64,000 nt of DNA, from the NCBI GenBank assembly GCA_965205855.1, contig OZ242184.1, positions 352,001 through 416,000 of the forward strand, written 5' to 3'. Each line of letters starts with the position of its first letter. Position 1 is the stretch's first letter. Both the position numbers and the translations under genes were made by a program. Below the pieces are notes generated by a model. It did no database searches. It saw only the letters and a program-made list of their open reading frames with translations, and was not told the DNA's origin. This document shows, one piece after another, positions 407 through 54,010 of the stretch. This stretch comes from Thermodesulfobacteriota bacterium (GTDB taxonomy: Bacteria; Desulfobacterota_D; UBA1144; Nemesobacterales; Mycalebacteriaceae).

Positions 407-2869
407 GTGTCCGATAAGAAAACATCACTGATGGCGGCTTTTGCGCTTTGCTTTGTCTTGCTATCTTGTAGCCAAGGTGGAAGTTCTCCCCAGCCTGTTT
501 CTCCTCCTCCCGTTGTTTCTCCTCCTGTTTCTCCCCCTCCCGGTCAATCCACCACCGTTGTTCCCCAGCCTCCTCCCACTGTTCCCGGTCCGACTAATCC
601 GGACCCAGAACCTCAACTGCCTTCACTGGTGGAATCTCCGCCTCAAGGGTTAACAGACGGGGAAATTGATGATTTTTATCACGACACATATCTGGGACTC
701 TCCGGGTCGGCAGTAGAACTTCGTATTGTTAACCTGCCCGGAGCATATCGAAACATTTACAAAGCGCGCGGCGAGAGTGAGGCGGCACGTCCGGGCAAAG
801 GGGTTACAATAGGTTTTGTTGACAGCGGTCTTGATACGGAACATCCGTCGTTCAGGGAGGATGATGGCAAGGCTGTGGAAGTTGAGTATTTTGGCACATC
901 GAAGGATGCGGATATAGGCAACCTAGTCTCCTCCCACGGAACGGCTGTCGCCAGTATTGCCGCCGGAGCGAGGAGTTGGTGTCTCAACGACGTGACTAAC
1001 TGTACGCTAAACAATGAAGGAGGGCTTTCCCTCGAAGGTATTGCTCCGGGAGCCAATATCTTTATGTTTGCGTTTAATGTTGATAGTCCAAATTGGGTTC
1101 ACAATGCCGGGCGTGCTATTGCGGCGGCTTTTGAAAGAAATGTTGATATATTGAATTTAAGTTTCAGCGAGGCGGAAGGCATTGTTACCGATGCACGCTT
1201 TACAGGGAATACGGATCAGTTTTTAGGGCTGGTGGGCCGGCAAACAGACAGAGAGGAAAAAACAATTTTTGTATGGTCCGCCGGAAATCTCAATGGAAGT
1301 GTATGCACTTCCCCTGCGATTTCGAGCAGTTGCGTAGACGGGCGTATTCGTGCAACGTCGCCTAATGTTCTAGCCGGGTTGCCTTATCACGTGCCCGAAC
1401 TGAAACCTTTCTGGGTTGCCGTTGTTTCCACAGACCTGAATCCGGGAGAGATTTCCAGTTTTTCCAACAGGTGTGGAGTTGCCAAAGAATGGTGCATAGC
1501 GGCTCCGGGAGAAAGGATAGGAGTTGCCGTCACTTCCATGGAAGGAGAGAGAAGGATCAGCTCAATCGGACTCAGGAACGGCACATCTTTCTCCGCCCCC
1601 ATAGTCTCCGGCGGACTTGCCTTGATGAAACAGGTTTTCCGGGGTCAGATAAGCAATGTTGAATTGGTTCAAAGAATGTTTGCCACTGCCAACAAAGACG
1701 GAATATACTTTGACACAGAAATATACGGGCAGGGGCTTTTAGACCTCGAAAAAGCAACCAATCCAGTAGGGACGGCGGGTTTTGCGTCCGTCGGAACGCA
1801 GTTTCTGGACGCCGAGGGGACATTGTTTTCCCCTCTTTATGCCGCGCAAATGGAAACGTCACAAGCGTTTGGAGACGGGCTTGAAAAATTTCTTGCGCAA
1901 CAGGAAGTCGCGGCTTTTGACAGTCTCGGAGCCCCGTTCTGGTATCCGCTTGAGAAGTTTTTCAGCAGAGAGGAAGTCCCGTTTCTTCAAAGGCAACTAA
2001 GCGATTTTATTGATTTTACGGCATCAGGTAAATCAAGAGCCGGCCCCCCACTCCCGCGGGGTTCAAGGGTGTCCGCGCCGCTTTTCCGGGGCAAAGTCGC
2101 AAAGGGTCTGGAAGAGGAGCAAATGCCTGAGATTTACATTTCAACGACGCGGAGCGGGATTGAAGACCCGAACCGTCTTGGTAAATCGGGACATCTGTCT
2201 TTTATTGACAACCCTCTGTTTGCAGGGGTGGATTCCGGCAACTTTGACGTTTTCGCTTTCACTTCCGGGGAAAGGGTGGAAAGGCACGGTCGCGGAGTGG
2301 TCGCTTCATTCCGTCTGCCAAACCTGCCTCTGGGTTTTCGCTCCGGCTACATCTCGGAGTCAAGGTCTGCGCTTGGGGCAACTGCGGAAGGCTTGTTTGG
2401 CGGATTTTCTGCGCAAACCGTTTTCGCAAGCATCGGCTGGGAATACGGATTTGGCGGCTGGCGGCTTGTCGCTGAAGCGGAGGCGGGAGCCGTTTATCCC
2501 GAAGCGGAAACGGGATTTGTCGGTGGCTTGTCGCAGCTTTCGACAAGTTCATTCTCCGCCGGGTTGATACGTGAATTTCCCGACGGCTTGACCATGAAGT
2601 TTTCAGTTTCTTCGCCGCTCAGGGTTGAAAGTGGACACATGGAGTTTGTAATTCCCGTTGGAAGAACGCTGAAAGGGGAGATACTGAGAGACAAGGCAAC
2701 CGCGAACCTTGAACCGTCCGGAAGGCAGGTGGACATCGGGGCGCAAGTGGTGGTGCAAACCTTGCTTGGAAGGGTGAGTTTGGGTGGAGTGGTAAGCCAT
2801 GAACCCGGACACGATAAGGACGCGGAAGTTTCCCTATCTTTTCTGGCCGGTTACAGCGCGAATTTTTAA
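407..2869 (+). CDS. S8 (subtilisin-like) serine peptidase; probable lipoprotein with Pro-rich linker and C-terminal beta-rich, autotransporter-like domain
   Basis: Triad motifs FVDSG, SHGTAVA and NGTSFSAP; oxyanion WSAGN; lipobox-like LLSC; terminal Phe. Start is uncertain (GTG 407 or ATG 431). Confidence 0.88.
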   Translation: MSDKKTSLMAAFALCFVLLSCSQGGSSPQPVSPPPVVSPPVSPPPGQSTTVVPQPPPTVPGPTNPDPEPQLPSLVESPPQGLTDGEIDDFYHDTYLGLSGSAVELRIVNLPGAYRNIYKARGESEAARPGKGVTIGFVDSGLDTEHPSFREDDGKAVEVEYFGTSKDADIGNLVSSHGTAVASIAAGARSWCLNDVTNCTLNNEGGLSLEGIAPGANIFMFAFNVDSPNWVHNAGRAIAAAFERNVDILNLSFSEAEGIVTDARFTGNTDQFLGLVGRQTDREEKTIFVWSAGNLNGSVCTSPAISSSCVDGRIRATSPNVLAGLPYHVPELKPFWVAVVSTDLNPGEISSFSNRCGVAKEWCIAAPGERIGVAVTSMEGERRISSIGLRNGTSFSAPIVSGGLALMKQVFRGQISNVELVQRMFATANKDGIYFDTEIYGQGLLDLEKATNPVGTAGFASVGTQFLDAEGTLFSPLYAAQMETSQAFGDGLEKFLAQQEVAAFDSLGAPFWYPLEKFFSREEVPFLQRQLSDFIDFTASGKSRAGPPLPRGSRVSAPLFRGKVAKGLEEEQMPEIYISTTRSGIEDPNRLGKSGHLSFIDNPLFAGVDSGNFDVFAFTSGERVERHGRGVVASFRLPNLPLGFRSGYISESRSALGATAEGLFGGFSAQTVFASIGWEYGFGGWRLVAEAEAGAVYPEAETGFVGGLSQLSTSSFSAGLIREFPDGLTMKFSVSSPLRVESGHMEFVIPVGRTLKGEILRDKATANLEPSGRQVDIGAQVVVQTLLGRVSLGGVVSHEPGHDKDAEVSLSFLAGYSANF
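488..615 (+). repeat. Low-complexity proline-rich linker (PVSPPP/PVVSPP-type imperfect repeats)
   Basis: Repeated cctcct/gtttct units encode PQPVSPPPVVSPPVSPPPGQSTTVVPQPPPTVPGPTNPDPEP. Confidence 0.7.
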
Positions 2870-2909
2870 GCCATCCGCACAACTCCGTGCAAAGCAGAGT
2901 GTGGAAACG

Positions 2910-4112
2910 CTACCGTCGTTGCGCTTTGAGCCGTAGCGCGTTGAGTTTAATAAACCCGCCAGCGTCCGCCTGATTGTAGAGGTCATCTTTCTCAAAAGTC
3001 GCAAGTGCGGGATTGTAAAGGGATTTTCCCGCTTTTCTTCCTACAACCGAAACCACGCCTTTGTAAAGTTTCATCCGAGCCGTGCCGGTTACATTTTTCT
3101 GAGATTCTTCAACAGTTTTCATAAGCGTTTCCATCTCCGGCGAATACCAGAAACCGTAGTAGATTATCTCGGAGATTTTGGTCATGAGGAAATCCTTGAG
3201 CCTCATGACCTCACGGTCAACCGTTATGGATTCCACCGCCCTGTGCGCCGGATGAAGAACCGTTCCCGCGGGAGTCTCGTAAACGCCGCGCGATTTCATC
3301 CCGACAAAACGGTTTTCAACAATATCGGCGCGGCCGATTCCGTGCCCGCCCGCGATTTTGTTCAACCGGAGTATCAGATTCGCAGGCGACAGTTTTTTGC
3401 CGTTCACGCTCACGGGCGCGCCTTTTACGAAACCTATCTCAACGTATTCGGGTTTGTCCGGTGCCTTTTCGGGCGAAACCGTCATCTCAAACATCGCCTC
3501 GTCCGGTTCGTTCCACGGGTCTTCAAGAACGCCGCCTTCATAACTTGTGTGAAACAGATTTCTGTCGCAACTGTAAGGTTTTTTCGGTGTTACGGGGATT
3601 TTAATTCCGTGTTTGCGGGCAAAACCCAACAGGTCTGTGCGGGACTTCAAATCCCATTCGCGCCACGGGGAAATGATTTGCAACTTCGGAGTGAATGCAT
3701 GATAAACAAGTTCAAAGCGCACTTGATCGTTTCCCTTTCCGGTCGCCCCGTGCGAGAGGGCGAACGCTTTTTCTTTCAGGGCAACCTCCGCCTGAGCGCG
3801 GGCAATCAGCGGACGGGCGAGAGAAGTTCCGAGTAGATACGAGCCCTCGTAAATCGCTCCCGCCTTTATTGCCGGAAAAACAAAGTCGCGCGCAAATTCC
3901 TCTTTGAGGTTTGCGACGCAGACCTTTTGAGCTCCCGTTTCGAGCGCTTTTTTGCGCGCCGCCGCTATGTCTTCATCCTGACCTACATCCGCGATAAACG
4001 CTATCACTTCGGCGTCGTATTCGGCCGTAAGCCATTTGAGTATGATGGAGGTATCAAGCCCGCCGGAATAAGCAAGAACAATTTTTTTCCGTGATTTTTT
4101 CGATTTTTTCAT
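2910..4112 (-). CDS. argG: Argininosuccinate synthase
   Basis: VLAYSGGLDTS, HGATGKGNDQVRFE and GMKSRGVYETP motifs. Confidence 0.98.
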   Translation of the reverse strand: MKKSKKSRKKIVLAYSGGLDTSIILKWLTAEYDAEVIAFIADVGQDEDIAAARKKALETGAQKVCVANLKEEFARDFVFPAIKAGAIYEGSYLLGTSLARPLIARAQAEVALKEKAFALSHGATGKGNDQVRFELVYHAFTPKLQIISPWREWDLKSRTDLLGFARKHGIKIPVTPKKPYSCDRNLFHTSYEGGVLEDPWNEPDEAMFEMTVSPEKAPDKPEYVEIGFVKGAPVSVNGKKLSPANLILRLNKIAGGHGIGRADIVENRFVGMKSRGVYETPAGTVLHPAHRAVESITVDREVMRLKDFLMTKISEIIYYGFWYSPEMETLMKTVEESQKNVTGTARMKLYKGVVSVVGRKAGKSLYNPALATFEKDDLYNQADAGGFIKLNALRLKAQRR

Positions 4113-4118
4113 TGGCTC

Positions 4119-4535
4119 TCAGGAGGTTCCGGTTTGTCCCCGGAGGTCGAGAAGATAGAACTTTGCGCCGCTGTTTTCGTAGAATTTTTCAAGTGACATT
4201 CCCACATACTCTATCCTCTGCAACTCATTGCCTTCATAACGGGCTTTTTTAACCTCATCCGATATTGTCGCTTTAACCTCAATCTGTTTGTCCGGAACCT
4301 GCTGGCAGATAAAGCCCAGTGTAAGCGCCGTTTCCTTGAAATCCGCGGACACTATAAAACCGACCGAAAAAGTCGCGTTGGCAAGCTCAATGACGATAAT
4401 GATAACGGGAGGGGTTGAGCCAGAAGGGTTTTCCGCCACGAACTTATAGCCGTAAACCTGAATATCGTTCACAGAACCCATTATTGAATTAAGGTTCCAA
4501 TAGTCTTCGTTTTCAATCATACAAATTGTGAGCAT
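4119..4535 (-). CDS. Hypothetical protein (up to 138 aa; start may be the later Met of MIENEDYW)
   Basis: Fills the gap between the RluA-family gene and argG on the same strand; globular-looking composition; no motif recognised. Confidence 0.65.
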   Translation of the reverse strand: MLTICMIENEDYWNLNSIMGSVNDIQVYGYKFVAENPSGSTPPVIIIVIELANATFSVGFIVSADFKETALTLGFICQQVPDKQIEVKATISDEVKKARYEGNELQRIEYVGMSLEKFYENSGAKFYLLDLRGQTGTS

Positions 4536-4614
4536 TATAATTTTCTCCCGCGGCTTTGCCGCCCCATCACAGGGTGTTTACACTACCAGAAAGCAGTCTC
4601 TTTTTGAAGCTGCA

Positions 4615-5559
4615 CTATTTCCGCAGGAAAGCGACCGCGGTTGCCATGTCTTCGGGAAGCGGAGCCGAAAAAACCGCATCTTCTCCCGAACCGGGGTGAA
4701 TGAAAGTTATGCGCGCCGCGTGCAGCGCCTGCCTTTTCAGAATTTTTGCCAGTCCGCCGGAGGAGAGCGCGATTTTCGCGGTTTTTCCGGAGTAAATCGC
4801 GTCTGCGGCCACGGGATGACCGGCTTCGGAGAAATGCACCCTTATCTGATGTGTTCTGCCGGTTTTCGGAGTTATCTTCACAAAAGTCCAGTCTGGAAAT
4901 TTCTCAACGGTTTCCCACTCCGTTACGGAGTCGCGCGTTTTTACCGCGTTTTTACCGGACATCTTTTTCCTGTTCGCGGGGCTTCTTCCTATTGCCGTGG
5001 AGAAAACGCCCGAGTTTTTCCTTGTCGCCCCGTGGACAAGTGCGAGATATTCCTTCCGCACCGAGCGCGCGGAGAATTGAGACGCGAGAGAAGCGTGGCA
5101 AATATCATTTTTTGCCGCGACTATAACGCCCGATGTGTCTTTGTCCAAACGGTGAACAATTCCCGGTCTGATGTCTCCCCCAATGGATGAGAGGCGGGCG
5201 CATCTGTGCGCGAGCGCATTTGCGAGAGTACCGTTTTTTCTCCCGGCTCCGGGATGAACCACCATACCCGCGGGTTTGTTCACAACTATCAGGTCTTCGT
5301 CCTCAAAGACAACCTCAAGCGGGATGTTTTCGGGCTCGGCGGAATGTTCCGATTCAAAGAAACTGAACTCAATCTTTTCGCCTCCCTCCAGTATAGTAGA
5401 CGGCTTGAACTGTTTTCCGTCCATAAGGATGTTGCCCGATTTGATAAGAGCGGCTATGCGTGAGCGGCTTTGCGGGGAGATGTCGGAAAGGACGGAGTCC
5501 GCTCTCCTTCCGGTGCATTCGCGCGGCACGGTCAGGGTTCTTGTTTCACTCTCCGGCAC
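4615..5559 (-). CDS. rluD: RluA-family 23S rRNA pseudouridine synthase (RluD-like, with S4 domain)
   Basis: NKPAGMVVHP, HRLDKDTSG, TGRTHQIRVH and RQALHA motifs. Confidence 0.9.
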   Translation of the reverse strand: MPESETRTLTVPRECTGRRADSVLSDISPQSRSRIAALIKSGNILMDGKQFKPSTILEGGEKIEFSFFESEHSAEPENIPLEVVFEDEDLIVVNKPAGMVVHPGAGRKNGTLANALAHRCARLSSIGGDIRPGIVHRLDKDTSGVIVAAKNDICHASLASQFSARSVRKEYLALVHGATRKNSGVFSTAIGRSPANRKKMSGKNAVKTRDSVTEWETVEKFPDWTFVKITPKTGRTHQIRVHFSEAGHPVAADAIYSGKTAKIALSSGGLAKILKRQALHAARITFIHPGSGEDAVFSAPLPEDMATAVAFLRK

Positions 5560-6364
5560 TTGGTTTTCCTTTTCTTACGGTGATCTTTGTTCCCTCGCCT
5601 CCGAAACGCTCAAACGCACTTCCCCGATTGACCGCTATTTCAATAAATCCCGAACTTCCCCTGACCGCGACCGCTTTTCCGGGTTTGTGTTCCGAATAAC
5701 CGCCCGATATGCCGTCTATTGTGAAGCCGGAAATCTCGATTTGAGCCGGATTTTCCATCCCGTCCGATTCAATGTTTGAGATGAGGTTTCCAAATGAGTC
5801 CACATACGCGACAATTCCTTCCGCTGATTTTCCGCTTAAATACACGGGCTTTTGAATGTTAATTAAAAAGGGGTTCTCAAGAACCGGCCCCAGCATCCGG
5901 GGATTTAATCCGAGCGAAATATGAGCGGCCGCCGGAGCAAAGATGTCTCTTCCGTCAAAAGTGGAACCGACGGGTTTGAGCGTGTATTTGGGGTTTTTTA
6001 TCTCATAAGCCACAAAACGCGGAAAATCCTTGAAAACATGAGTGAATATACCGTTGTCGGGACCCACAAAAAAACTTCCGCCCGCACTTACGGCAAGAGG
6101 TTTTCTGTCGGTTCCGACTCCGGGGTCAACAACGGCGAGATGGACAGAATGTTCCGGAAAAAACCCGTATGAGTTTTTTATCACAAACGCCGCGCGAGCA
6201 GTGTTGAAAGGTCTCAAATTGTGTGTCAGGTCAACCAGATTGATGTCGGGGTTAATTGAAAAAATCACGCCCTTCATTACTCCCGGAAAATGGTCGTTAA
6301 GGCCGAAATCGGAGCACATTGTTATTATTCCGGACATTGATTGAAAGGAGCGCGGATTTTGCAC
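5546..6364 (-). CDS. SAM-dependent chlorinase/fluorinase/SAM-hydrolase (DUF62) family protein
   Basis: SDFG, VVDPGVGTDR, GPDNG, TFxGRDIFAP, VDSFGNL and EIAVNRGSA motifs. Confidence 0.92.
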   Translation of the reverse strand: MQNPRSFQSMSGIITMCSDFGLNDHFPGVMKGVIFSINPDINLVDLTHNLRPFNTARAAFVIKNSYGFFPEHSVHLAVVDPGVGTDRKPLAVSAGGSFFVGPDNGIFTHVFKDFPRFVAYEIKNPKYTLKPVGSTFDGRDIFAPAAAHISLGLNPRMLGPVLENPFLINIQKPVYLSGKSAEGIVAYVDSFGNLISNIESDGMENPAQIEISGFTIDGISGGYSEHKPGKAVAVRGSSGFIEIAVNRGSAFERFGGEGTKITVRKGKPSAGE

Positions 6365-11268: not shown

Positions 11269-12348
11269 CTAAGCGCGCGCATCATGGCTGCCATCAGAGC
11301 TTCGCCATTCCGAAGGGATAAATATCTTTTTGAAAACCGAAACCGCATATGAATCTGTCATTCCCGCAATAAAATCGCAAACCGCTCTCTCATGAGTGTC
11401 TTCGGGATGCAGGGGTTTGATTCCCCATTTCTCTTCAGCCTCGCGGGCGTTTTCACAGAAATGTATGTAAAGAGATTTGACAATCTGCCCGCCTTTTTCC
11501 GCTTCCGTTTTGACCTTTTCCATCAAATAAACCCTGTTGAACATATATTCCCTGATTCCAACCATGGCCTCTTCAAATTCGGGGCTGATTGATATTTTTT
11601 TGTATTTTTCAAGCATACTCTGTGAGACAATGTCTCTTACGGTTCTGTCCAGCCTTTTTGAACAGTCTTTGCCGAGAACCCTGACGCATTCCTTCGGTAG
11701 GTCATCTTCCGATATGATTCCCGACCTTACCGCATCGTCTATATCGTGATTCGCGTAGGCAAGCATGTCCGACACTCTTACCACTTGACCCTCAAGGGTT
11801 TCGGGCGCGTTTTTCCCGCCATCTATGGGACCGCGTCCCTTTGAGTGTTTCGCTATTCCATCCAGCACTTCATGGGTCAGATTCAACCCCTTTCCCCGGT
11901 TTTCAAGGGAAACTGCAACCCGCACACTGTGCTTCACGTGTGAAAAACCTTCTGGAAAAACATCGTTCAACGCTCTTTCCCCCGTGTGCCCGAAAGGCGT
12001 ATGCCCTATGTCGTGTCCCATCGCTATGGCTTCGGTCAGGTCTTCATTCAGGGAAAGTGCCCTCGCTATCGTGCGCGCGATTTGGGAAACCTCAAGTACG
12101 TGAGTCAGGCGGGTTCTGTAATGGTCATTAGTTGGAGAGAGAAACACTTGCGTTTTATGCTTCATTCGCCGGAAGGTTTTGGAATGGATAATGCGGTCTC
12201 TGTCGCGCTGGAAGGGTGTTCTCATAAAGCACTCATCTTCGGGTCTGGCTCTTCCTTTTGATTCTGAACTCAGAGTCGCAAAAGGGGAGAGCAAGATGCT
12301 CTCTTTTTCCTGAAACTTTTCCCGGATGGATTTTCCTTTCTTATTCAT
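11269..12348 (-). CDS. dgt: Deoxyguanosinetriphosphate triphosphohydrolase (HD domain)
   Basis: [36 protein letters not shown] and DFIAGMTD motifs. Confidence 0.94.
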
Positions 12349-13915: not shown

Positions 13916-14332
13916 ATGAATTACTGGCTCGTTAAGTCCGAACCGTTCAAATATTCATGGAAAGATTTTGTTCGCGACGGTCGCACATACTGGGACGGAG
14001 TCCGCAACTATCAGGCACGCAACAACCTTTCGGCGATGAAAAACGGCGATTTGGCTCTTTTCTACCACAGCAATGAGGGGCGTGAAGTTGTCGGAGTGGC
14101 AAAGGTGGTCAAGGAGAGCTACCGAGACCCCACAACCGATGATGAGCGATGGGTTGCCGTTGATTTTGAGCCAGACTCGGTTTTTGAGCACCCGGTCGGG
14201 CTTGGTGATATTAAAACCGACCCGGTTTTGAAAGAAATGAGCATTGTAAAACAGAGTCGGCTTTCGGTGATGCCGGTTTCAAAAAAACATTTTCATGTTG
14301 TTCTTAGAAAAGGGAAAAACAGACCTCTGTGA
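13916..14332 (+). CDS. EVE domain-containing protein
   Basis: MNYWLVKSEP, WDGVRNYQARN, FYHS and SRLSV motifs. Confidence 0.95.
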   Translation: MNYWLVKSEPFKYSWKDFVRDGRTYWDGVRNYQARNNLSAMKNGDLALFYHSNEGREVVGVAKVVKESYRDPTTDDERWVAVDFEPDSVFEHPVGLGDIKTDPVLKEMSIVKQSRLSVMPVSKKHFHVVLRKGKNRPL

Positions 14333-19878: not shown

Positions 19879-22464
<2,586 letters not shown>

Positions 22465-22467
22465 GTT

Positions 22468-25023
22468 ATGCAGGACTATTCGCGATTTCTCAGCCGTTGT
22501 TCAAGTTGGGAGCAGTTTTCGGATTACACAGGCTCCCTGAAAACCGCGAAAGAGAAGGGCGACCTTTTTGAAAAACTGGTTTGGACATATCTGACAGTCC
22601 ATCCCGAATACAGGACAAAGCTTTCCAATGTTTGGTTGCTCCGCGATGTTCCGCAGGCGGTTACCCGCAAGCTCAATCTTCCGTCTGCCGACGAGGGTAT
22701 AGACCTGATTGCGCAAGCTCGCGGCGGCGGGTTCTGGGCGATACAGGCAAAATACAGGTCTGACAAAGACAAAGCGCTGAACACCCGCGACCTTGCGAAG
22801 TTTTTGCACCTTTCTTTTACCCATTGTAACGGCATAACCCACGGCGTTATTGCGCACACGACTTCAAAGCCCGTACGGAAAAAAAATTTGCTTGGTAATG
22901 TGGTTGAAATCGGTCTTTCGCGCTGGCAGGAACTCTCGCCCGAAGGGTGGGACGCAATCCGCGCGAAGGTGGCGAACAAGGTTCACAATCTCGTGCCGCG
23001 CAAACCGAGGAGACATCAGAAGGCGGCAATCGCCAACATACGCAAGCATTACGCGGAAGAAAAAAAGCCGAGGGGCAGGATGATTATGCCTTGCGCGTCC
23101 GGAAAAAGTCTCACGGCGTTCTGGGCAGCGCAAGCCCTTAAAGCGAAGACGGTTGTTCTTGCCGTGCCGAGTCTTTTGCTCGTAAAGCAAAGCGTCAAAG
23201 ACTGGACTCGCGAGTATCTCGCCCATAATGAGACACCGGACTGGCTTTGTGTTTGCAGCGATGAGACTGTTGGCAAGATAGAGGACAGTTTTGTTTCAAA
23301 CATATACGAAACGGGGCTTCCGACCACAACGGACGCAAAAGAGATAGCAGACTTTCTGAGAAAACGCTCATCTGTGCCGAGGGTGATTTTTACAACCTAC
23401 CAAAGCAGTCCCCGGCTTGCGGAGGCGGCGCGCAAGTCCGGGCGCGAGATAGACCTCTGCATACTGGACGAAGCGCACAAGACAGTCGGGGAAAAAGATT
23501 CCGCTTTTGCGACCTTGCTTGACAACAGGAAACTGAAAATCAAAAGGCGGCTTTTTATGACTGCCACAGAAAGGGTTCTTCACGGAAAAAACGATGAAGT
23601 TCTGTCAATGGATGACGAGCGGACTTACGGCGGGTGTTTTTATCAACTCACATTCAGGCAAGCGATTGAGGACGGCATTATATGCGATTATAAGATTCTG
23701 ACTCTTACGATTTTGGACGCGCAGGTACGCGAGATTGTTGAGAGAAACAGACTTGTGAAAGACAGATTGCTTGCTCAGCAGACCCGTGAGTCCGCGCCGC
23801 TTGCCGCGGGAATTGCGCTCGGCAAGGTGTTCAACGAACACTGCATTAAACACGCGGTTTCATTTCACAAAAGCATAAAATCCGCTACCGATTTCAAATC
23901 CCAGCAGGAAGACCTTTCAAAGTCTCGCGTTATCAAAACAAAGATTGAGAACTTTCATATTTCAAGCAATCTGTCCGCCGGAGAGCGAACGGTTGTGATG
24001 CGCGATTTTGAGCAATCCCAAAGGTCTCTTATAACAAACGCCAGATGTTTGACCGAAGGGGTTGATGTTCCCGCGATTGATTGTGTTCTTTTTGCAGATC
24101 CCAAGCACAGCGTTATTGACATTGTTCAAGCGGCGGGAAGGGCGATGCGTCCGAAAGAGGGAAAAGAGAGGGGCTACATACTCCTGCCGATTGTTGTGCC
24201 GGACGGGATGAGTGTTGAGGAATTTGCGGAAACAACCCCGTTCAAAAAGGTTGCAAGTCAGATTACCGCGCTGTCCACTCAGGACGAGAGAGTCAAGGAA
24301 GAGTTCAGGGCGATTACCGAAGGGAAAAGGCCAAGCGCGCAAGGGCGGCTTTTTTCAATCAGCGGCGATGTTCCCGCCGGAATGAATATCAGTCTCAAAC
24401 AGTTTTCCGATGCGATTGAAAGCAAAATTTGGGAAAAGGTTGCCAAAGTTAATTGGAGGGTTTTTAAAGAAGCGCGGGATTATGCGCAGTCGTTGAGACT
24501 AAAAAGTGCAACGGAATGGCGCGAACACACAAAGTCATCCGATTTTCCGTCAGATATTCCTGTTGATCCCAACCGAACATACAAAGACAAAGGATGGGTT
24601 AATTGGGGAGATTGGCTTGGGACTGGAAATATAGCTAATTTTCTCAAAGAGTACCGTTCTTTTAAAGAAGCGCGGGATTATGCGCAGTCGTTGCAACTAA
24701 GAAGTAGAACGGAATGGCGCGAACACACAAAGTCATCCGATTTTCCGTCAGGTATTCCTGTTGATCCCTACCGAACATACAAAGACAAAGGATGGGTTAA
24801 TTGGGGAGATTGGCTTGGGACTGGAAATATAGCTAATTTTCTCAAAGAGTACCGTTCTTTTAAAGAAGCGCGGGATTATGCGCAGTCGTTGAGACTAAAA
24901 AGTGCAACGGAATGGCGCGAACACACAAAGTCATCCGATTCTCCGTCAGATATTCCTGTTGCTCCCGACCAAATATACAAAGACAAAGGATGGGTTAATT
25001 GGGGAGATTGGCTTGGAAAATAA
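22468..25023 (+). CDS. Mrr-like restriction endonuclease + SF2 (DEAH) helicase + C-terminal tandem 66-aa repeats; Type ISP-like but without methyltransferase
   Basis: Nuclease motifs KGDLFE...DEGIDLIA...AIQAKY. Helicase motifs PRRHQ, MPCASGKS, ILDEAH, MTAT, CLTEGVDVP and VQAAGRAMR. C-terminal repeats end in GWVNWGDWLG. Confidence 0.88.
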   Translation: MQDYSRFLSRCSSWEQFSDYTGSLKTAKEKGDLFEKLVWTYLTVHPEYRTKLSNVWLLRDVPQAVTRKLNLPSADEGIDLIAQARGGGFWAIQAKYRSDKDKALNTRDLAKFLHLSFTHCNGITHGVIAHTTSKPVRKKNLLGNVVEIGLSRWQELSPEGWDAIRAKVANKVHNLVPRKPRRHQKAAIANIRKHYAEEKKPRGRMIMPCASGKSLTAFWAAQALKAKTVVLAVPSLLLVKQSVKDWTREYLAHNETPDWLCVCSDETVGKIEDSFVSNIYETGLPTTTDAKEIADFLRKRSSVPRVIFTTYQSSPRLAEAARKSGREIDLCILDEAHKTVGEKDSAFATLLDNRKLKIKRRLFMTATERVLHGKNDEVLSMDDERTYGGCFYQLTFRQAIEDGIICDYKILTLTILDAQVREIVERNRLVKDRLLAQQTRESAPLAAGIALGKVFNEHCIKHAVSFHKSIKSATDFKSQQEDLSKSRVIKTKIENFHISSNLSAGERTVVMRDFEQSQRSLITNARCLTEGVDVPAIDCVLFADPKHSVIDIVQAAGRAMRPKEGKERGYILLPIVVPDGMSVEEFAETTPFKKVASQITALSTQDERVKEEFRAITEGKRPSAQGRLFSISGDVPAGMNISLKQFSDAIESKIWEKVAKVNWRVFKEARDYAQSLRLKSATEWREHTKSSDFPSDIPVDPNRTYKDKGWVNWGDWLGTGNIANFLKEYRSFKEARDYAQSLQLRSRTEWREHTKSSDFPSGIPVDPYRTYKDKGWVNWGDWLGTGNIANFLKEYRSFKEARDYAQSLRLKSATEWREHTKSSDSPSDIPVAPDQIYKDKGWVNWGDWLGK
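24463..25020 (+). repeat. Intragenic tandem repeat, 198-bp unit x ~2.8 (starts at 24463, 24661, 24859)
   Basis: TTTAAAGAAGCGCGGGATTATGCGCAGTCG recurs at exact 198-nt spacing; unit 1 and unit 2 differ at 7 nt. Confidence 0.97.
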
Positions 25024-25051
25024 GCCGCTTTCAATTTCCGATTGGGGGCTA

Positions 25052-26779
25052 TCAGATTTTAAATTGGACGCTAATCAATAATCCCACAACCCTTTCCGCC
25101 GCTTTCTCAATCTCAACATTCTCCGTCTTATCCGTCAGGCGGTTCTTAACCTCAACCACTCCGTTTTTGAGTCCTCTCGGTCCCGCGATAATCTGAAACG
25201 GAATTCCAATCAGCTCGCAGTCTTTGAATTTTACGCCCGCGCTTTCGTCCCTGTCGTCAATCAGGGCGTCTATGCCCGCTTCAATGAGTTTTTTATAGAT
25301 GCCTTCTGCGACCGAAACTGTTTGCTCATTGCCCATGCTTGTTGGAATAACGGCGACTTCAAAAGGCGCTATGGCGGGCGGAATAACCATTGATTTGCCG
25401 TCGTTGTTCTGCTCTATTGCGGCGGCGGCGGTTCTGCCTATTCCTATTCCGTAACATCCCATTACAAACGGCTTCTCGCTTCCGTCCGAATCGGTGAAAG
25501 CAGCCTCCATCGCCTCGCTGTATTTTGTTCCGAGCATAAAAACATGGCCAACCTCTATGCCCCTTATTGAAGACAGTTTTCCGCCTTCGCACGACGGGCA
25601 GCCGTCCCCGTCCGCTGCGACACGGATGTCAAGAAATGCGTCCGGGGTGAAATCCCTTCCTTCGCTCACATTTGTTATGTGCGCGTCTTTTCTGTTAGCG
25701 CCCGCAACGGCATTTGTCATTGCGCGAATTGAAATGTCCGCAACTATTTTGACTTTCTCCTTCATTCCCACGGGCCCGCTGAAACCCACCGCGCCGCCGC
25801 AGACGCGCATAATCTCTTCCGCATTCGCAAGTTCGGCGGTTTCTGTGCCGAGCGCCTTTTTCAGTTTTGTCAGACTGAGTTCCCCGTCTCCGCGCACAAG
25901 AGCGGCAACCGTCCCGTCGTTTGTTGAAATAATCATCGTCTTTATCAAATCGGACGGACTTACTCCGAGAAATTTTGCGACATCCCCGACCGTTTTCATC
26001 CCCGGAGTTTCAACCTCACTGATTTCGCCGGGGTTTGCTCCAGTTTTTTCCGTCTCCGCTTCCGCTACCCCCGCAAGTTCGAGGTTTGCCGCATAGCCGC
26101 ACTTTTTACATGTCATCACAACATCCTCGCCCGTGGGAGCGAGAACCATGAACTCGTGCGACTCGCTTCCGCCGATGTTTCCCGTGTCCGCAAGCACGAC
26201 ACGAAACTCAAGGCCACAACGTTTGAAAATTCTGTTGTATGCGTCAAACATTTTTCCGTATGAGATTTTTGCGTTCTCAACAGAGGAGTCAAAGCTGTAT
26301 GCGTCCTTCATTATAAATTCGCGCGCGCGCATTATGCCGAAACGGGGGCGGATTTCATCCCTGAATTTTGTCTGTATCTGATAGAAATTCACGGGAAGGT
26401 CTTTGTAGGAACGTAAATCTCTCGCGGCTAGGTCGGTGATTATCTCCTCATGCGTGGGGCCTATGCAGAAATCCCTGTCCGCTCTGTCGTGCAAACGCAG
26501 GAGTTCCTTGCCGTAATGGTCCCACCTGCCGCTTTTTTTCCAGAGCTCGGCGGGAAGAACGGTCGGAAGAAGCGCCTCAATCGCGCCCGAAGTGTTCATC
26601 TCTTCACGGACTATTTTTTCTATTTTTCTCAAAAATCGCAGACCGAGCGGCAGATAGTCGTATATTCCCGCCGCGACTTTTCTTATCATCCCGGCGCGCG
26701 CCATAAGTTTGTGGCTTGCGACTTCAGCGTCCGCGGGGTCGTTCTTGAGAGTCGGTATGAAATATGAGGAAAATCTCAA
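25052..26779 (-). CDS. proS: Proline--tRNA ligase (with editing domain)
   Basis: GPTHEE, FRDEIRPRFGIMRAREF, IEVGHVF and MGCYGIG motifs. Start is probably TTG 26779 (MRFSSYF); the ORF extends to ATG 26827. Confidence 0.97.
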   Translation of the reverse strand: MRFSSYFIPTLKNDPADAEVASHKLMARAGMIRKVAAGIYDYLPLGLRFLRKIEKIVREEMNTSGAIEALLPTVLPAELWKKSGRWDHYGKELLRLHDRADRDFCIGPTHEEIITDLAARDLRSYKDLPVNFYQIQTKFRDEIRPRFGIMRAREFIMKDAYSFDSSVENAKISYGKMFDAYNRIFKRCGLEFRVVLADTGNIGGSESHEFMVLAPTGEDVVMTCKKCGYAANLELAGVAEAETEKTGANPGEISEVETPGMKTVGDVAKFLGVSPSDLIKTMIISTNDGTVAALVRGDGELSLTKLKKALGTETAELANAEEIMRVCGGAVGFSGPVGMKEKVKIVADISIRAMTNAVAGANRKDAHITNVSEGRDFTPDAFLDIRVAADGDGCPSCEGGKLSSIRGIEVGHVFMLGTKYSEAMEAAFTDSDGSEKPFVMGCYGIGIGRTAAAAIEQNNDGKSMVIPPAIAPFEVAVIPTSMGNEQTVSVAEGIYKKLIEAGIDALIDDRDESAGVKFKDCELIGIPFQIIAGPRGLKNGVVEVKNRLTDKTENVEIEKAAERVVGLLISVQFKI

Positions 26780-50384: not shown

Positions 50385-52106
50385 TTGCAGAAAGAAACAA
50401 GCATACCGTCTCTGCTTAAGAGGCATAAACCGCAACTTATCGCCGGGCTTATAACCCTTTCCGCGGTTGACCTTATTCAAATGGCAATACCGCTTGTTAT
50501 CAAACGCGCGACAGATGCGTTTGTGGATCCCGGTCCGGATACCGCCGGGCTTATACGCACCTGCGCTTTTTACATTCTGGGAATGGGCATTGTGATTTCG
50601 CTTTTTCGTCTGGGATGGCGTTATTTCATAATGGGAACCGCGCGCAAGATAGAGCAAAGTCTCAGAAACGAGTTTTTTGCCCACTTGCAAAGACTTCCCG
50701 CCGAACGGATTTTTTCCCGTAAGGTTGGAGATCTAATGGCTCACACCGTCAACGACATAGAAACCCTGAAATTTGCCTGTGGCCTGGGTGTTCTGGTCGC
50801 TTACGACGGTTTGTTTCTTCTTGTTTTTATAATGGGGGCGATGTTTTACATATCGGCTCCGGTCGCGGCCGTGCTGTGCGTGCCGTTTTTGCTCATGATG
50901 GTCTTTATTGTCAAAGGCGGAAGGGAAATAGAAAAACGCTTCAGAAAAACCCAGGAGTTTTTCTCGTCGCTTACCGAAAGTGCAAGAAGGCCCTTTCACG
51001 GAATCAAAGCGGTCAAATCCCTGCGTATGGAGGACGAGGAATTTGAAAACTTCAGCAACTCAAGTGCGGAATATGTGCAAAGCAACATCCGGCTTGCAAA
51101 AATATGGTCTGTTTATCAGCCCGCCATATCTCTGTGCGTGGGAATATCGGTTTCCGCATTTCTTTTGTTCGGCGGATACCGGACGATAACCGGTTCACTA
51201 ACGCTCGGGGATTTTACCGCACTGCTTGTGTATCTGTCCATGCTTGCGTGGCCGATTATGGCAATGGGGTGGGCTCAGGACATACTACGCAGAGGAAACT
51301 CTTCAATAAAGAGGCTTAACTCCATCTTGAGACTGGATACCGAACCGCAAGCCGGCAATGAAGAAGCGTTTCCGCATATAAGGGGAGGGCTTGATGTTTG
51401 TGGTGTAAGCCGCTCATTCGGTGCGAAGAAGGCCCTTGGCGGATGCTCCTTCAGAATTGAAGCCGGGGAAACCTCGTACATAACAGGCAGAACGGGTTCG
51501 GGTAAGACCGCCCTTGCCGGGATAATCAGCGGAGACATTGATCCGGATGAGGGCGCGGTGCGTATCGGCGGCGTGGACACTCGCTCGGTAAGTCGCGCCT
51601 TGCTTAAAAGAGAGGTCATTTGTGTTGACCGCAAAGCGTTTATTTTCAGCGGGACGGTAAGAGAAAACATAAACTTCATGAAACCCCTGCCAGATTCCCG
51701 GACCATGCGGGCGGCGGAAATATGCGGCATCAAAAAGGAGGTTGAAGGGTTTTCCGGAGGGCTTGACGCGACTTTGGGAGAGAGGGGAATGAACCTTTCG
51801 GAAGGACAGAAACAGAGAATATCAATTGCCCGCGCGATCATATTCAACCCGGCAATTCTGGTGCTTGATGACGCGCTTTCGTCCGTTGATCTTTCAACTG
51901 AGGCTGCTGTCGTGAAAAATCTTCGGGATTGGGCAAAGGGCACGGGAACGGCGCTGATAATTATTTCAAGCCGTACAAACTCCTCTCATCTCTCGGATTT
52001 CATTATGGTTCTGGAAGACGGAAAAATAGCCGAAAAAGGAACGCACCCCGAACTTATTTCACGCGACGGCATATATGCCGCAATGTACGGGATACAGGTG
52101 AAATGA
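50385..52106 (+). CDS. ABC exporter half-transporter (TMD+NBD) with degenerate catalytic motifs
   Basis: Multi-pass TMD; GRTGSGKT; LSEGQKQR; LDDALS; ISSR in place of the His switch. Confidence 0.92.
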   Translation: MQKETSIPSLLKRHKPQLIAGLITLSAVDLIQMAIPLVIKRATDAFVDPGPDTAGLIRTCAFYILGMGIVISLFRLGWRYFIMGTARKIEQSLRNEFFAHLQRLPAERIFSRKVGDLMAHTVNDIETLKFACGLGVLVAYDGLFLLVFIMGAMFYISAPVAAVLCVPFLLMMVFIVKGGREIEKRFRKTQEFFSSLTESARRPFHGIKAVKSLRMEDEEFENFSNSSAEYVQSNIRLAKIWSVYQPAISLCVGISVSAFLLFGGYRTITGSLTLGDFTALLVYLSMLAWPIMAMGWAQDILRRGNSSIKRLNSILRLDTEPQAGNEEAFPHIRGGLDVCGVSRSFGAKKALGGCSFRIEAGETSYITGRTGSGKTALAGIISGDIDPDEGAVRIGGVDTRSVSRALLKREVICVDRKAFIFSGTVRENINFMKPLPDSRTMRAAEICGIKKEVEGFSGGLDATLGERGMNLSEGQKQRISIARAIIFNPAILVLDDALSSVDLSTEAAVVKNLRDWAKGTGTALIIISSRTNSSHLSDFIMVLEDGKIAEKGTHPELISRDGIYAAMYGIQVK

Positions 52107-54010
52107 GTCCGAAAAGGGGAGAGAAAAACATCTTTGGTGCAATGCGGGACAGAAAGATGTTGTCCTGGTTGTTCGGTTTTATTAGACGGCGCAGCAGTTT
52201 TCTCGCAGCGTCTTTGGTTTTAATGACCCTCACCGCCAGTCTTGAAATTTCACTGCCTTACATAGCAAGGAGCGCCGTGGACAACTATATCTCGCTTTCG
52301 TGGACTAGGACGCCCGGCGGCGGGGTTGTAAATCTTTCATCACCCGAAGATATGAGAAAATACGCTCCAAGCACCGGTTTGTCCGAAAGGTATCTTGCCG
52401 TTGACACAAGCGAACCGGGTTTGAGTTCATCGGATATTGTGGCGCGCAATCCCGAACTGTTCATACGCAAAAACGGCTCTGCGTATATAAGCGCTGCGGA
52501 TTTGCGGGCTTTGCCAGATGAAGAGATAAAAGCGCTCAGATCCCGCGATACGGCCGGGGTGGCGCGCTTGGCCGTTCTCGCGGCGCTATGTGTTTTCGGC
52601 ATCTTTGCCATGTCTTCTCTTTCCAACTATGTGTTGAAGATTTCCGGCGAGCGGATAATACACGACATAAGAGTGAGCACTTTCAAGCACATACTGTTTC
52701 TGCCGCAGAAATTTTTTGAGGAAAATCCCACGGGCAGAATAACAACGAGGGTTACAAACGACCTGAACTCCATAAATGATATGTATTCATCGGTGATTGT
52801 TCAGACCTTTAAAGACCTTTTTGTGCTCATAGGTGTCTCCGTTGTTATATTCCGTCTTGATTTTACGCTCGCGTTGATAGTGATTTGCGTAGTCGCCGTC
52901 GCAGGTTTTGTCGCCCATCTTTTTCGCGCGCGGCTTAGGTTTTCACACCGCAGAATAAGGCGTTCAATAGCGCGTCTCAACTCTTTTGTTCAGGAAAGTA
53001 TAAAGGGAATCAGGATTATCAGAGACTACGGGAGAGAGCGGCAGAACCTGCGCAGGTTTGAGGAGACAAACAGGGAGAATTTTCTTGCGAATATGGAACA
53101 ACTCTGGGTTTATGTGATTTTCCGGCCTTTTATGGAATACGCTGCCATTGCCTCAATAGGGCTGATAATCTGGTACGGCGGCACGGGGGTCATAGACGGC
53201 AGGCTGACGGCCGGAACATTTATAGCTTTTCTTTACTACACAAGAATGATGTTCAGACCCGTGCTTGAGGTGTCGGAGAAATACAACATTCTCCAGTCCG
53301 CAATAGCCGCGACTGAAAATCTTTATGACATAAATGAGATTGAGCCTGAAAATCCGGGCGGGGTAGTGCCGTCAAAATCGACGGGAGATCTTGAGTTTCA
53401 CAATGTCTGGTTTTCATACGGCGATGGCCGCTGGGTGCTCAAAGATATCTCTTTCAAGGTGTCTGAGAACGAGTGGGTGGCGATAGTGGGGCTCACAGGG
53501 TCGGGGAAATCCACAATTTTCAACCTGATGTTCCGTCTTTACAAACCCCAGAGAGGAAAAATAACATTTGGCGGCGAAGATATCTCGCGTATGCGGCTCA
53601 AGTGGCTTAGGGCGCGGATTGCTCCGGTATTTCAGGAAAGAAAAGACTACGAAAAGGAAGACAGCAATGAAACGGTTTTTCTGTCTTCGGGCGAAGAACA
53701 AATTAAAGACATTGAGGAAGTTATGTCTGCAGACCCCGCGATAGTTATTATGGACGAGGCGACATCCAACATGGATGCGAAAACCGAGGCGGAAGCTCTG
53801 GGCAAGGTAAGGGAATACTCGCGACGCAGGGGATGCGGCCTTGTAACCATAGCGCACAGACTTTCAAGCATAAGGGAGGCGGACAGGATTGTTGTCGTTC
53901 ACAAGGGCGAAATCGTCGAGACCGGAACGCATGAAGAGCTTGACCGTATGCGCGGAACCTACCACTCTCTCAACAAATTTGCCGCCGCCGTGCCACCGGT
54001 GGCGGATTAA
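52103..54010 (+). CDS. ABC exporter half-transporter (TMD+NBD) with extracytoplasmic insertion and shortened NBD
   Basis: GLTGSGKST, MDEATS and IAHRLS motifs; ATGA overlap with the partner at 52103-52106. Confidence 0.9.
   Translation: MSPKRGEKNIFGAMRDRKMLSWLFGFIRRRSSFLAASLVLMTLTASLEISLPYIARSAVDNYISLSWTRTPGGGVVNLSSPEDMRKYAPSTGLSERYLAVDTSEPGLSSSDIVARNPELFIRKNGSAYISAADLRALPDEEIKALRSRDTAGVARLAVLAALCVFGIFAMSSLSNYVLKISGERIIHDIRVSTFKHILFLPQKFFEENPTGRITTRVTNDLNSINDMYSSVIVQTFKDLFVLIGVSVVIFRLDFTLALIVICVVAVAGFVAHLFRARLRFSHRRIRRSIARLNSFVQESIKGIRIIRDYGRERQNLRRFEETNRENFLANMEQLWVYVIFRPFMEYAAIASIGLIIWYGGTGVIDGRLTAGTFIAFLYYTRMMFRPVLEVSEKYNILQSAIAATENLYDINEIEPENPGGVVPSKSTGDLEFHNVWFSYGDGRWVLKDISFKVSENEWVAIVGLTGSGKSTIFNLMFRLYKPQRGKITFGGEDISRMRLKWLRARIAPVFQERKDYEKEDSNETVFLSSGEEQIKDIEEVMSADPAIVIMDEATSNMDAKTEAEALGKVREYSRRRGCGLVTIAHRLSSIREADRIVVVHKGEIVETGTHEELDRMRGTYHSLNKFAAAVPPVAD

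Follow-up and report, generated by a model that had tools for sequence, protein, structure and literature searches.

What does a gene do that couples a restriction-type nuclease to a DNA motor and ends in a tandem repeat array, in the place of a methylase and specificity module? This question is raised by an open reading frame (ORF) at positions 22468–25023 (+) of a 64,000-nucleotide stretch from a Thermodesulfobacteriota bacterium (GenBank assembly GCA_965205855.1, contig OZ242184.1, positions 352,001 to 416,000). Throughout, the window means this whole stretch, and positions are counted from its first letter. A preliminary description, made from the sequence, had taken the gene for a stand-alone nuclease-helicase and a candidate new defence system. 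Our best reading is that it encodes a single-polypeptide, methylase-independent, ATP-driven translocase-endonuclease of double-stranded DNA (dsDNA), which belongs to the Type ISP lineage, is aimed by a DNA-binding array and probably restricts foreign DNA. We regard the chances of this reading being right and of its being wrong as about equal. The biochemical identity of the product as a nuclease-motor of the Type ISP lineage is well supported by sequence comparison, and a role in defence is what we infer.

The ORF starts with ATG, encodes 851 residues and is uninterrupted by stops, and it is the single copy in its own genome (one contig, 1.40 Mb). From the N-terminus it consists of a nuclease, a superfamily 2 (SF2) motor, a linker and a three-unit repeat array, all encoded on the plus strand. 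Domain mapping with Pfam, which the preliminary description had proposed as a check, gave an Mrr-family PD-(D/E)xK nuclease core at residues 44–134 (22597–22869; Mrr_cat_2, E 2.3e-15), the N-terminal RecA-like lobe of the motor at residues 179–367 (23002–23568; ResIII, E 2.9e-14) and the C-terminal RecA-like lobe at residues 465–562 (23860–24153; Helicase_C, E 3e-12). The Mrr-like nuclease and full SF2 motif set that had been claimed are thus present, and every quoted motif was located: LFEKL (33–37), DEGIDLIA (75–82) and IQAKY (92–96) in the nuclease, CASGKS (Walker A; 209–214), DEAH (334–337) and TATE (365–368, with TAT at 365–367) in the motor, and TEGVDVP (529–535) and QAAGRAMR (motif VI; 554–561) in its C-terminal lobe. 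The catalytic residues of the nuclease are E35, just upstream of the core, D75-x-G-x-D79 and Q93-x-K95. Among 40 aligned family members, E35, D79, Q93, K95, G212, K213, D334–H337, Q554, G557, R558 and R561 are invariant (40 of 40), and D75 is conserved in at least 90%. In LlaGI, the substitutions D74A, D78A and K94A abolish cleavage, and E38 and Q92 contribute (PMC2790908, in the excerpts available); these five residues correspond to D75, D79, K95, E35 and Q93 here. Conservation across the family extends to every residue known to be required for cleavage and for ATP hydrolysis.

The closest characterised relatives of this module are Type ISP restriction enzymes. The PADLOC model REase_MTase_IIG (Type IIG/ISP) was matched at E 6e-101, only at model positions 11–645 of 1646, and the best solved relative is LlaBIII (E 8.4e-66; query residues 24–612 against chain residues 27–651), followed by LlaGI (E 2.5e-49). 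As in these enzymes, one polypeptide opens with an Mrr nuclease carrying E, D-x-G-x-D and Q-x-K and continues with an SF2 dsDNA-translocase motor, and by analogy the translocate-then-cut chemistry is probably common to both. However, the homology with LlaBIII stops at residue 612, and the coupler, the gamma-class N6-adenine methylase and the specificity domain are all missing. In Pfam, the protein has no match to the coupler domain PF22240 at E≤0.1, nor to the N6-adenine methyltransferase families PF02384 and PF07669, nor to the target-recognition domain PF18135, while true Type ISP proteins carry all three kinds of domain (PF22240 in 20 of 20). In the position of the coupler lies a basic linker (residues 613–665; 24304–24462) with a pI (isoelectric point) of 10.2 and one long predicted helix at residues 643–661 (helix 4–22 of the AlphaFold2 tail model), and the C-terminus is the repeat array. 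Self-protection through cognate methylation is unavailable to such a protein, because no methylase is fused to it. From the above, the Pfam domains, the PADLOC and LlaBIII matches and a tree of the motor (see below) support the arrangement proposed at the outset, a Type ISP-like nuclease-motor in which a repeat array replaces the methylase and specificity half.

The repeat is genuine and well beyond what chance would give. Tandem Repeats Finder detected it at 24462–25016, with a period of 198 nucleotides, 2.8 copies, 94% matches and a score of 1026, and together with protein alignment this delimits three units. Unit 1 (residues 666–731; 24463–24660) and unit 2 (residues 732–797; 24661–24858) each consist of a helical core of 53 residues and a linker of 13 residues, and unit 3 (residues 798–851; 24859–25020) is a core without the linker and holds the protein end, WLGK. 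Twelve tryptophans were counted in the array, so that the description of about three copies of a Trp-rich repeat of 66 residues is accurate. Its resemblance to the Pfam family INT_rpt (PF14882, “integrase repeat unit”, earlier PHINT_rpt), which had been suggested, holds at the level of the family, whose units this model describes, but not for the window protein alone. The latter scores 17.5 bits (E 0.005, residues 824–850; 15.3 bits in a search across the genome), below the gathering cut-off of 26.5, with only three units contributing to the score, while 7 of 8 homologues scanned exceed the cut-off with 39–52 bits. A hidden Markov model (HMM) built from the window's three copies finds 6–12 units in each of the listed homologues (119 of 119), whose units align column for column with those of the window, and the INT_rpt-named atlas clusters are the nearest to the tail (cosine 0.94).

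AlphaFold2 models a single unit (predicted local distance difference test, pLDDT, 87.6) as a compact domain with two helices of 8–10 residues and two short helices. For the three-unit tail, the pLDDT is 89.1 and the predicted template modelling score (pTM) is 0.51, and the placement of the units relative to each other is uncertain. Searches with these models and with the unit profile returned no usable relative. The three-unit model has no Foldseek match in the PDB at E≤0.001 (best 1.3) and a best VIA-align Z of 3.5. The single unit likewise has no Foldseek match at E≤0.001, and its best VIA-align Z is 3.1 (RepB), with a few DNA-binding helical domains at Z 2.0–2.4, which is noise. The best E of the unit profile against PDB sequences is 0.95. 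No fold assignment follows from the structure or profile searches. In the searchable literature, which does not extend to supplementary files, we found no paper giving a function of the INT_rpt repeat: in the portions available it appears only in a table in PMC8078820 and serves only as an integrase marker in PMC11502894, and in a Gamma-Mobile-Trio preprint GmtZ is presented simply as a Phage_Integr_2 integrase, with the repeat unmentioned.

Collecting homologues of the same architecture, as had been proposed, yielded a large family across many phyla, and the gene does not stand as an isolated case: the window protein is one small member of a very large, generically named family. A word-indexed search (8,000 scored) returned at least 2,080 proteins at E≤1e-3. 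The best 119 matches all share the architecture, the named ones being called “DEAD/DEAH box helicase” or “superfamily II helicase”, and among the matches listed the closest named proteins are labelled Candidatus Dadabacteria. The domains are therefore known, and the family is already in databases under generic names. Among pattern-matched stretches (one-genome-per-species contigs), 313 of 461 encode relatives, and the best 80 of these 313 were used for all locus and neighbour counts. Their labels cover many phyla, including Thermodesulfobacteriota, Planctomycetota, Verrucomicrobiota, Bacteroidota, SAR86, Pelagibacteraceae (SAR11) and SAR116. In the 74 complete orthologous ORFs among them, the number of units per protein ranges from 1 to 14 and is most commonly 5–7, and 4 of the 74 have three units or fewer; the array of the window is thus short but not unique. 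In one locus (L082, Akkermansiaceae-labelled), the orthologue lies in two frames, a 298-residue nuclease piece (2109–3005) and an 831-residue remainder (3129–5624), which reflects either a frameshift or a misassembly.

The longer relatives form three groups: 15 proteins with 11–14 INT_rpt units and no methylase, 11 in which 12–16 HA domains follow the Mrr-SF2 module, and 20 true Type ISP proteins that have the coupler, the methylase and the specificity domain. We built a tree of the motor module from 54 hand-chosen rows (25 of INT_rpt type, 9 of HA type and 20 of Type ISP type). On this tree each architecture lies on one side of a branch, with support values in the Shimodaira–Hasegawa-like approximate likelihood ratio test (SH-aLRT) of 100, 95 and 100, and the INT_rpt family is parted from true Type ISP by a long branch (0.72; SH-aLRT 100). 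Because of these splits and the spread of the architecture, the family is, as judged from its sequences, an old and separate lineage under selection, not a decayed Type ISP gene. The HA-array proteins (PF03457; for example, P0286 from Mycolicibacterium and P0294 from Nocardia) resemble it in having an Mrr nuclease, an SF2 motor and tandem helical modules of about 65 residues, here 12–16 units, and they are 31–37% identical to the query over the motor. They differ in having their own split on the motor tree, source names that are actinobacterial where given, and a repeat without detectable relation to INT_rpt (hhalign probability 1.2%), so that we claim no kinship between the two repeats; Pfam finds no match to PF03457 in the window protein. 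On the motor tree, then, the same motor has been joined twice to an array of small helical repeats. In these sister proteins the HA domains take the place of the INT_rpt array, and the HA domain is said to bind DNA in the title of a 2013 paper by Mills et al., which is in line with the array being a DNA module. The HA-array proteins (P0286–P0296) are an uncharacterised family in their own right, and residues 651–1627 of P0286 hold 14 units (789 bits).

The arrays themselves change fast. Units are more alike within one protein than between orthologues, and the mean pairwise DNA identity between units is 95% in the window array and 87.5% in the array of L037, which indicates turnover through recombination inside the array. 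A near-constant scaffold (F1, A4, W19, P29, P33, Y40, G44, W45 and D50–G53) is retained, while positions 16, 17, 20, 21, 30, 34–38, 42–43 and 46 differ in 60–87% of within-protein unit pairs (the arrays of L037–L040 included); by helical periodicity, positions 16, 17, 20 and 21 form one face of helix 2. In the youngest long array (L037), the within-array ratio of nonsynonymous to synonymous changes per site (pN/pS) is 1.96 at the 12 variable positions and 0.19 at the others, and over all arrays it is 0.93 and 0.29, respectively; since the sites were picked by amino-acid variability, these figures are descriptive. The window array has 11 nonsynonymous and no synonymous differences at the variable positions, against 11 and 3 elsewhere. 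These patterns hint at a diversifying surface on the units. A TALE-like code was considered and set aside, as the variability is spread over about 12 surface positions and not over one or two. Short-read contigs end at 24491 and resume at 24987, so that they leave the array unbridged and display no alternative lengths.

A further-reaching view can be built on these patterns. The INT_rpt array would be a modular, fast-evolving and retargetable DNA reader, in which each 53-residue unit touches a few bases of sequence, or a modified base, with the exposed side of helix 2 (positions 16, 17, 20 and 21) and the 34–38 loop, and in which recombination inside the array shuffles copy number and contact residues, much as happens in arrays of zinc fingers or TALE repeats. 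In this full form we consider the proposal distinctly doubtful.

What the repeat is joined to elsewhere bears on its role. The tail alone matches at least 6,046 cluster representatives at E≤1e-3. Of its best 150 matches, 46 were Pfam-scanned, selected for at least 100 non-repeat residues, and most of them are helicases or N-terminally cut pieces of the family of the window gene. A lone Mrr nuclease carries four units of the repeat (P0255), and other fusions involve TniQ (P0212), an Integrase_2 protein (P0166) and an SNF2 ATPase (P0225); three further proteins (P0205, P0210 and P0258) combine N-terminal repeats with a helicase and a Methyltransf_8 domain. Similar tails are found on SF2 helicases of giant viruses in BFVD (Klosneuvirus, Bodo saltans virus, Catovirus and others), and five phage records have repeat tails, from Xanthomonas/Stenotrophomonas jumbo phages (309–385 kb) and one uncultured phage (485 kb). 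The mean net charge is +2.3 per unit, with 75% of 996 units positive. As every one of these partners works on DNA, the most economical view is that the repeat would bind DNA, and the INT_rpt array would accordingly be a DNA-binding module. The co-occurrence with DNA enzymes and the net positive charge suggest, in addition, that the array may supply target recognition.

Put together, these properties suggest the following mechanism. The array would contact DNA and so load and aim the enzyme, the motor would translocate along duplex DNA, and the Mrr nuclease would nick or cut once movement is stalled or two enzymes run into each other, as happens with LlaGI/LlaBIII, for which translocation followed by collision-linked cleavage is the precedent (PMC3553950 and PMC4666363, in the parts available). 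Without a cognate methylase, self DNA must be spared in some other way, most likely by an array that recognises a feature of foreign DNA, either a modification or a rare sequence. On this view the enzyme would serve as a Type IV-like restriction factor that needs no methylase. A Type IV system is a nuclease without a cognate methylase; here the protein and the window both lack a methylase, and in 79 of 80 loci no methylase lies adjacent.

Such a factor would have known counterparts. With modification-dependent (Type IV) ATP-dependent enzymes such as SauUSI and modular sensor-nucleases such as the END nucleases it has in common that one gene, without a methylase, joins a nuclease and a helicase-like motor to a separate C-terminal sensing module. 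The nuclease here, however, is of Mrr type and not of PLD type, and the sensor is an array of a domain without a known ligand. A modular nuclease-plus-sensor model for modification-dependent enzymes is set out in PMC12191111 (in the part available). Pfam finds none of the known modified-base readers (EVE/PUA, SRA, DUF3427 and iEndoIII) in the protein, which does not exclude modification-dependent action, the ligand of the repeat being unknown. In PADLOC-DB v2.0.0 no model spans the whole architecture, and the partial matches (restriction-modification, PbeA and other helicase models) do not cover the array.

Several observations weigh against a role in restricting foreign DNA. The first concern the neighbours of the gene, for which the 80 loci provided 613 ORFs within five positions and 229 within two (230 minus the row of L082, a piece of the target gene). 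PADLOC matches were counted at E≤1e-10, the first 149 neighbours having been scanned at 1e-5 and then recounted. They comprise 19 of the 229 neighbours within two ORFs, in 18 of the 80 loci, including a CBASS 4TM effector, UzuA, four SoFic, TIR, REase_II and a DpdE/ZorD-like helicase, and 62 of the 80 loci have no such neighbour. The enrichment near defence genes, one of the checks proposed for a defence system, is not significant: 19 of 229 against 3 of 63 ORFs of the window, a small control from one genome (Fisher p = 0.43). Pfam named 35 of 102 scanned neighbours (of the 230); most of these are metabolic or housekeeping genes, one is an integrase, and DNA methylases are absent. The gene is probably constitutively expressed, judged from its start three bases after gyrB. 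Since the repeat occurs in giant viruses and jumbo phages too, the module cannot be regarded as specific to defence, and as the unit has no solved relative, its DNA binding is argued from context. Among plasmids (PLSDB), 566 records match and none covers 80% or more of the query, the matches listed being Type ISP or other helicase genes. Finally, no paper on this family was found in the searchable literature, which does not include the supplementary files that might list it; as a branch of the Type ISP lineage that lacks the methylase and has its parallel in the HA-array branch, the family appears to be undescribed in the literature searched.

Some of the same observations would suit a chromosome-maintenance or repair enzyme that works on the cell's own DNA, at stalled forks, breaks or transcription conflicts, with the array as a general DNA or protein tether. 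The genomic setting of the window gene fits it. The stop codon of gyrB (19945–22464, +, by Pfam; TAG at 22462–22464) lies three bases before the ATG of the gene, and contigs of three studies cross this junction without differences. A consensus scan finds no promoter-like site between the two genes, its best promoter-like site lying at 19933–19961 (11 of 12 matches), and by this layout gyrB and the gene probably share one transcript. The same scan alone marks a terminator-like hairpin (25009–25027, +) across the stop codon of the gene, and the convergent proS ends at 25052. Each of the 21 ORFs scanned from 11269 to 35454 is a housekeeping gene, and recA, cinA, ogt and parAB are near the gene. 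The mostly housekeeping neighbours in other genomes, the non-significant defence enrichment, the occurrence of the family in streamlined marine genomes labelled SAR11, SAR86 and SAR116, and the similar tails of giant-virus SF2 helicases also agree with maintenance or repair, as does a weak similarity to NCBIfam RadD (E 1.7e-13), which is far under its cut-off.

The distribution of the gene, which is patchy, argues the other way. Within the genus, 4 of 5 other genomes have an orthologue, with 67–73% identity. Elsewhere in the order, 5 of 35 genomes match, at 32–38% identity and in the nuclease-motor part only; these matches are Type ISP-length frames or shorter pieces, and no match in the 35 genomes reaches into the repeat array. 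Three different housekeeping sites are occupied within the genus: two orthologues lie in the same gap between gyrB and proS, one lies between fumarase and thioredoxin genes, and one lies between a HAD hydrolase and a TPR/metH pair. The gyrB–proS gap itself (window 22465–25051) is variable in the genus (compared loci L121, L122, L123, L039 and L040). It holds the target gene by itself in the window, the target gene followed by a peroxidase in G003 and by a PIN-domain ORF in G004, and in the others different cargo: DUF898, an M48 peptidase and DUF5684 in G002; a glycosyltransferase, an STT3-like protein and DUF805 in G005; and one unknown 150-residue ORF in G001. The proS match of G005 (C7:2721-4481) contains one in-frame TGA. 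The variable cargo and the different sites indicate that the gene is part of the flexible genome. Given also that its closest characterised relatives are restriction enzymes and not repair helicases, and that the array changes fast in copy number and surface positions, we consider a maintenance or repair function unlikely, if worth keeping in view.

A second possibility is a split restriction-modification system to which the gene contributes the restriction half, the sites read by the array being protected by a methyltransferase encoded elsewhere in the genome. The 1.40-Mb genome does have many DNA methylase matches: three for N6_Mtase, four for Eco57I (at loci common with N6_Mtase) and eight for N6_N4_Mtase, of which three, three and six, respectively, are above the family cut-offs. 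However, all matches to these three Pfam families are outside the window, the closest (genome position 340285–340932) being about 33.5 kb from the gene, and none of the 63 window ORFs matches a PADLOC methyltransferase model at E≤1e-10, in agreement with the preliminary statement that no methyltransferase lies nearby. A DNA methylase occurs within two genes in only 1 of the 80 loci (L087, C5-type, position +2), and at none of the three sites in the genus. Nor does any gene family recur beside the gene: across the 80 loci there is no conserved partner, and the largest family among the 613 ORFs, Fic proteins in Verrucomicrobiota, spans four loci. The gene is therefore stand-alone, as had been claimed, sometimes beside defence genes and usually not. 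No INT_rpt-bearing methylase was seen except the helicases with Methyltransf_8, which is not a known DNA methylase. On balance, a split system seems very unlikely. Among the methylase matches of the genome are a frame of 1211 residues near 1,385 kb that has an Eco57I-type domain, another of 700 residues near 1,315 kb, and five N6_N4_Mtase genes that are intact and score above the cut-off of their family.

A mobile or selfish function, in which the array reads a specific site and the gene promotes its own spread or maintenance, is highly improbable in our estimate. It draws on the co-occurrence of the repeat with Integrase_2 and TniQ, which are proposed site readers, on the presence of a lone gene without companions at three sites in one genus, and on the PIN-domain ORF that follows the gene in one genome. 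However, the 102 neighbours scanned include one integrase and no transposase, a nuclease-motor gene of 2.5–5 kb is unlike known homing genes, and the nuclease and ATPase are under purifying selection across phyla, in agreement with a function in the cell. Finally, that the gene is a decayed Type ISP gene which lost its methylase half and is becoming a pseudogene has almost no chance of being right, and as far as sequence data allow it is refuted by the residue invariance in 40 members and the motor tree: with 851 residues and three units the protein is among the shortest members, but its frame is intact with all catalytic residues present, its family splits from true Type ISP on a strongly supported long branch and keeps its architecture in thousands of members, and the 95% DNA identity of its three units speaks for a recently active array.

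Four other ORFs of the window were recorded in passing. The product of 11269–12348 (−) is an HD and HD_assoc protein with a match to the PADLOC dGTPase model (E 2.6e-75), and it could be either a dGTP triphosphohydrolase with a housekeeping role or a defence enzyme that depletes nucleotides. Just upstream of meaB, 13916–14332 (+) encodes a stand-alone EVE-domain protein of 138 residues (E 1.2e-46); EVE/PUA domains often read modified bases. A 693-residue ORF at 51929–54010 (+) has a C-terminal match to PADLOC mad3 (E 1.3e-20), and an 820-residue ORF at 407–2869 (+) matches a subtilase model (E 4.6e-12).

The consequences depend on which explanation is correct. If the protein is a repair enzyme, the result would be the ordinary annotation of an uncharacterised helicase. 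If the array is a reader as outlined above, it would be a methylase-free, retargetable aiming device for a translocating nuclease, and integrases, TniQ proteins and viral helicases would be making use of the same device. The parallel with the HA arrays suggests a general rule, that nuclease-motors of this lineage swap their aiming module. If the family does restrict foreign DNA, it would be a large overlooked class of single-gene immunity, built on a Type ISP motor without a methylase and present in streamlined marine genomes labelled Dadabacteria, SAR11, SAR86 and SAR116, and this would be the first function for INT_rpt, a repeat of more than 6,000 protein clusters.

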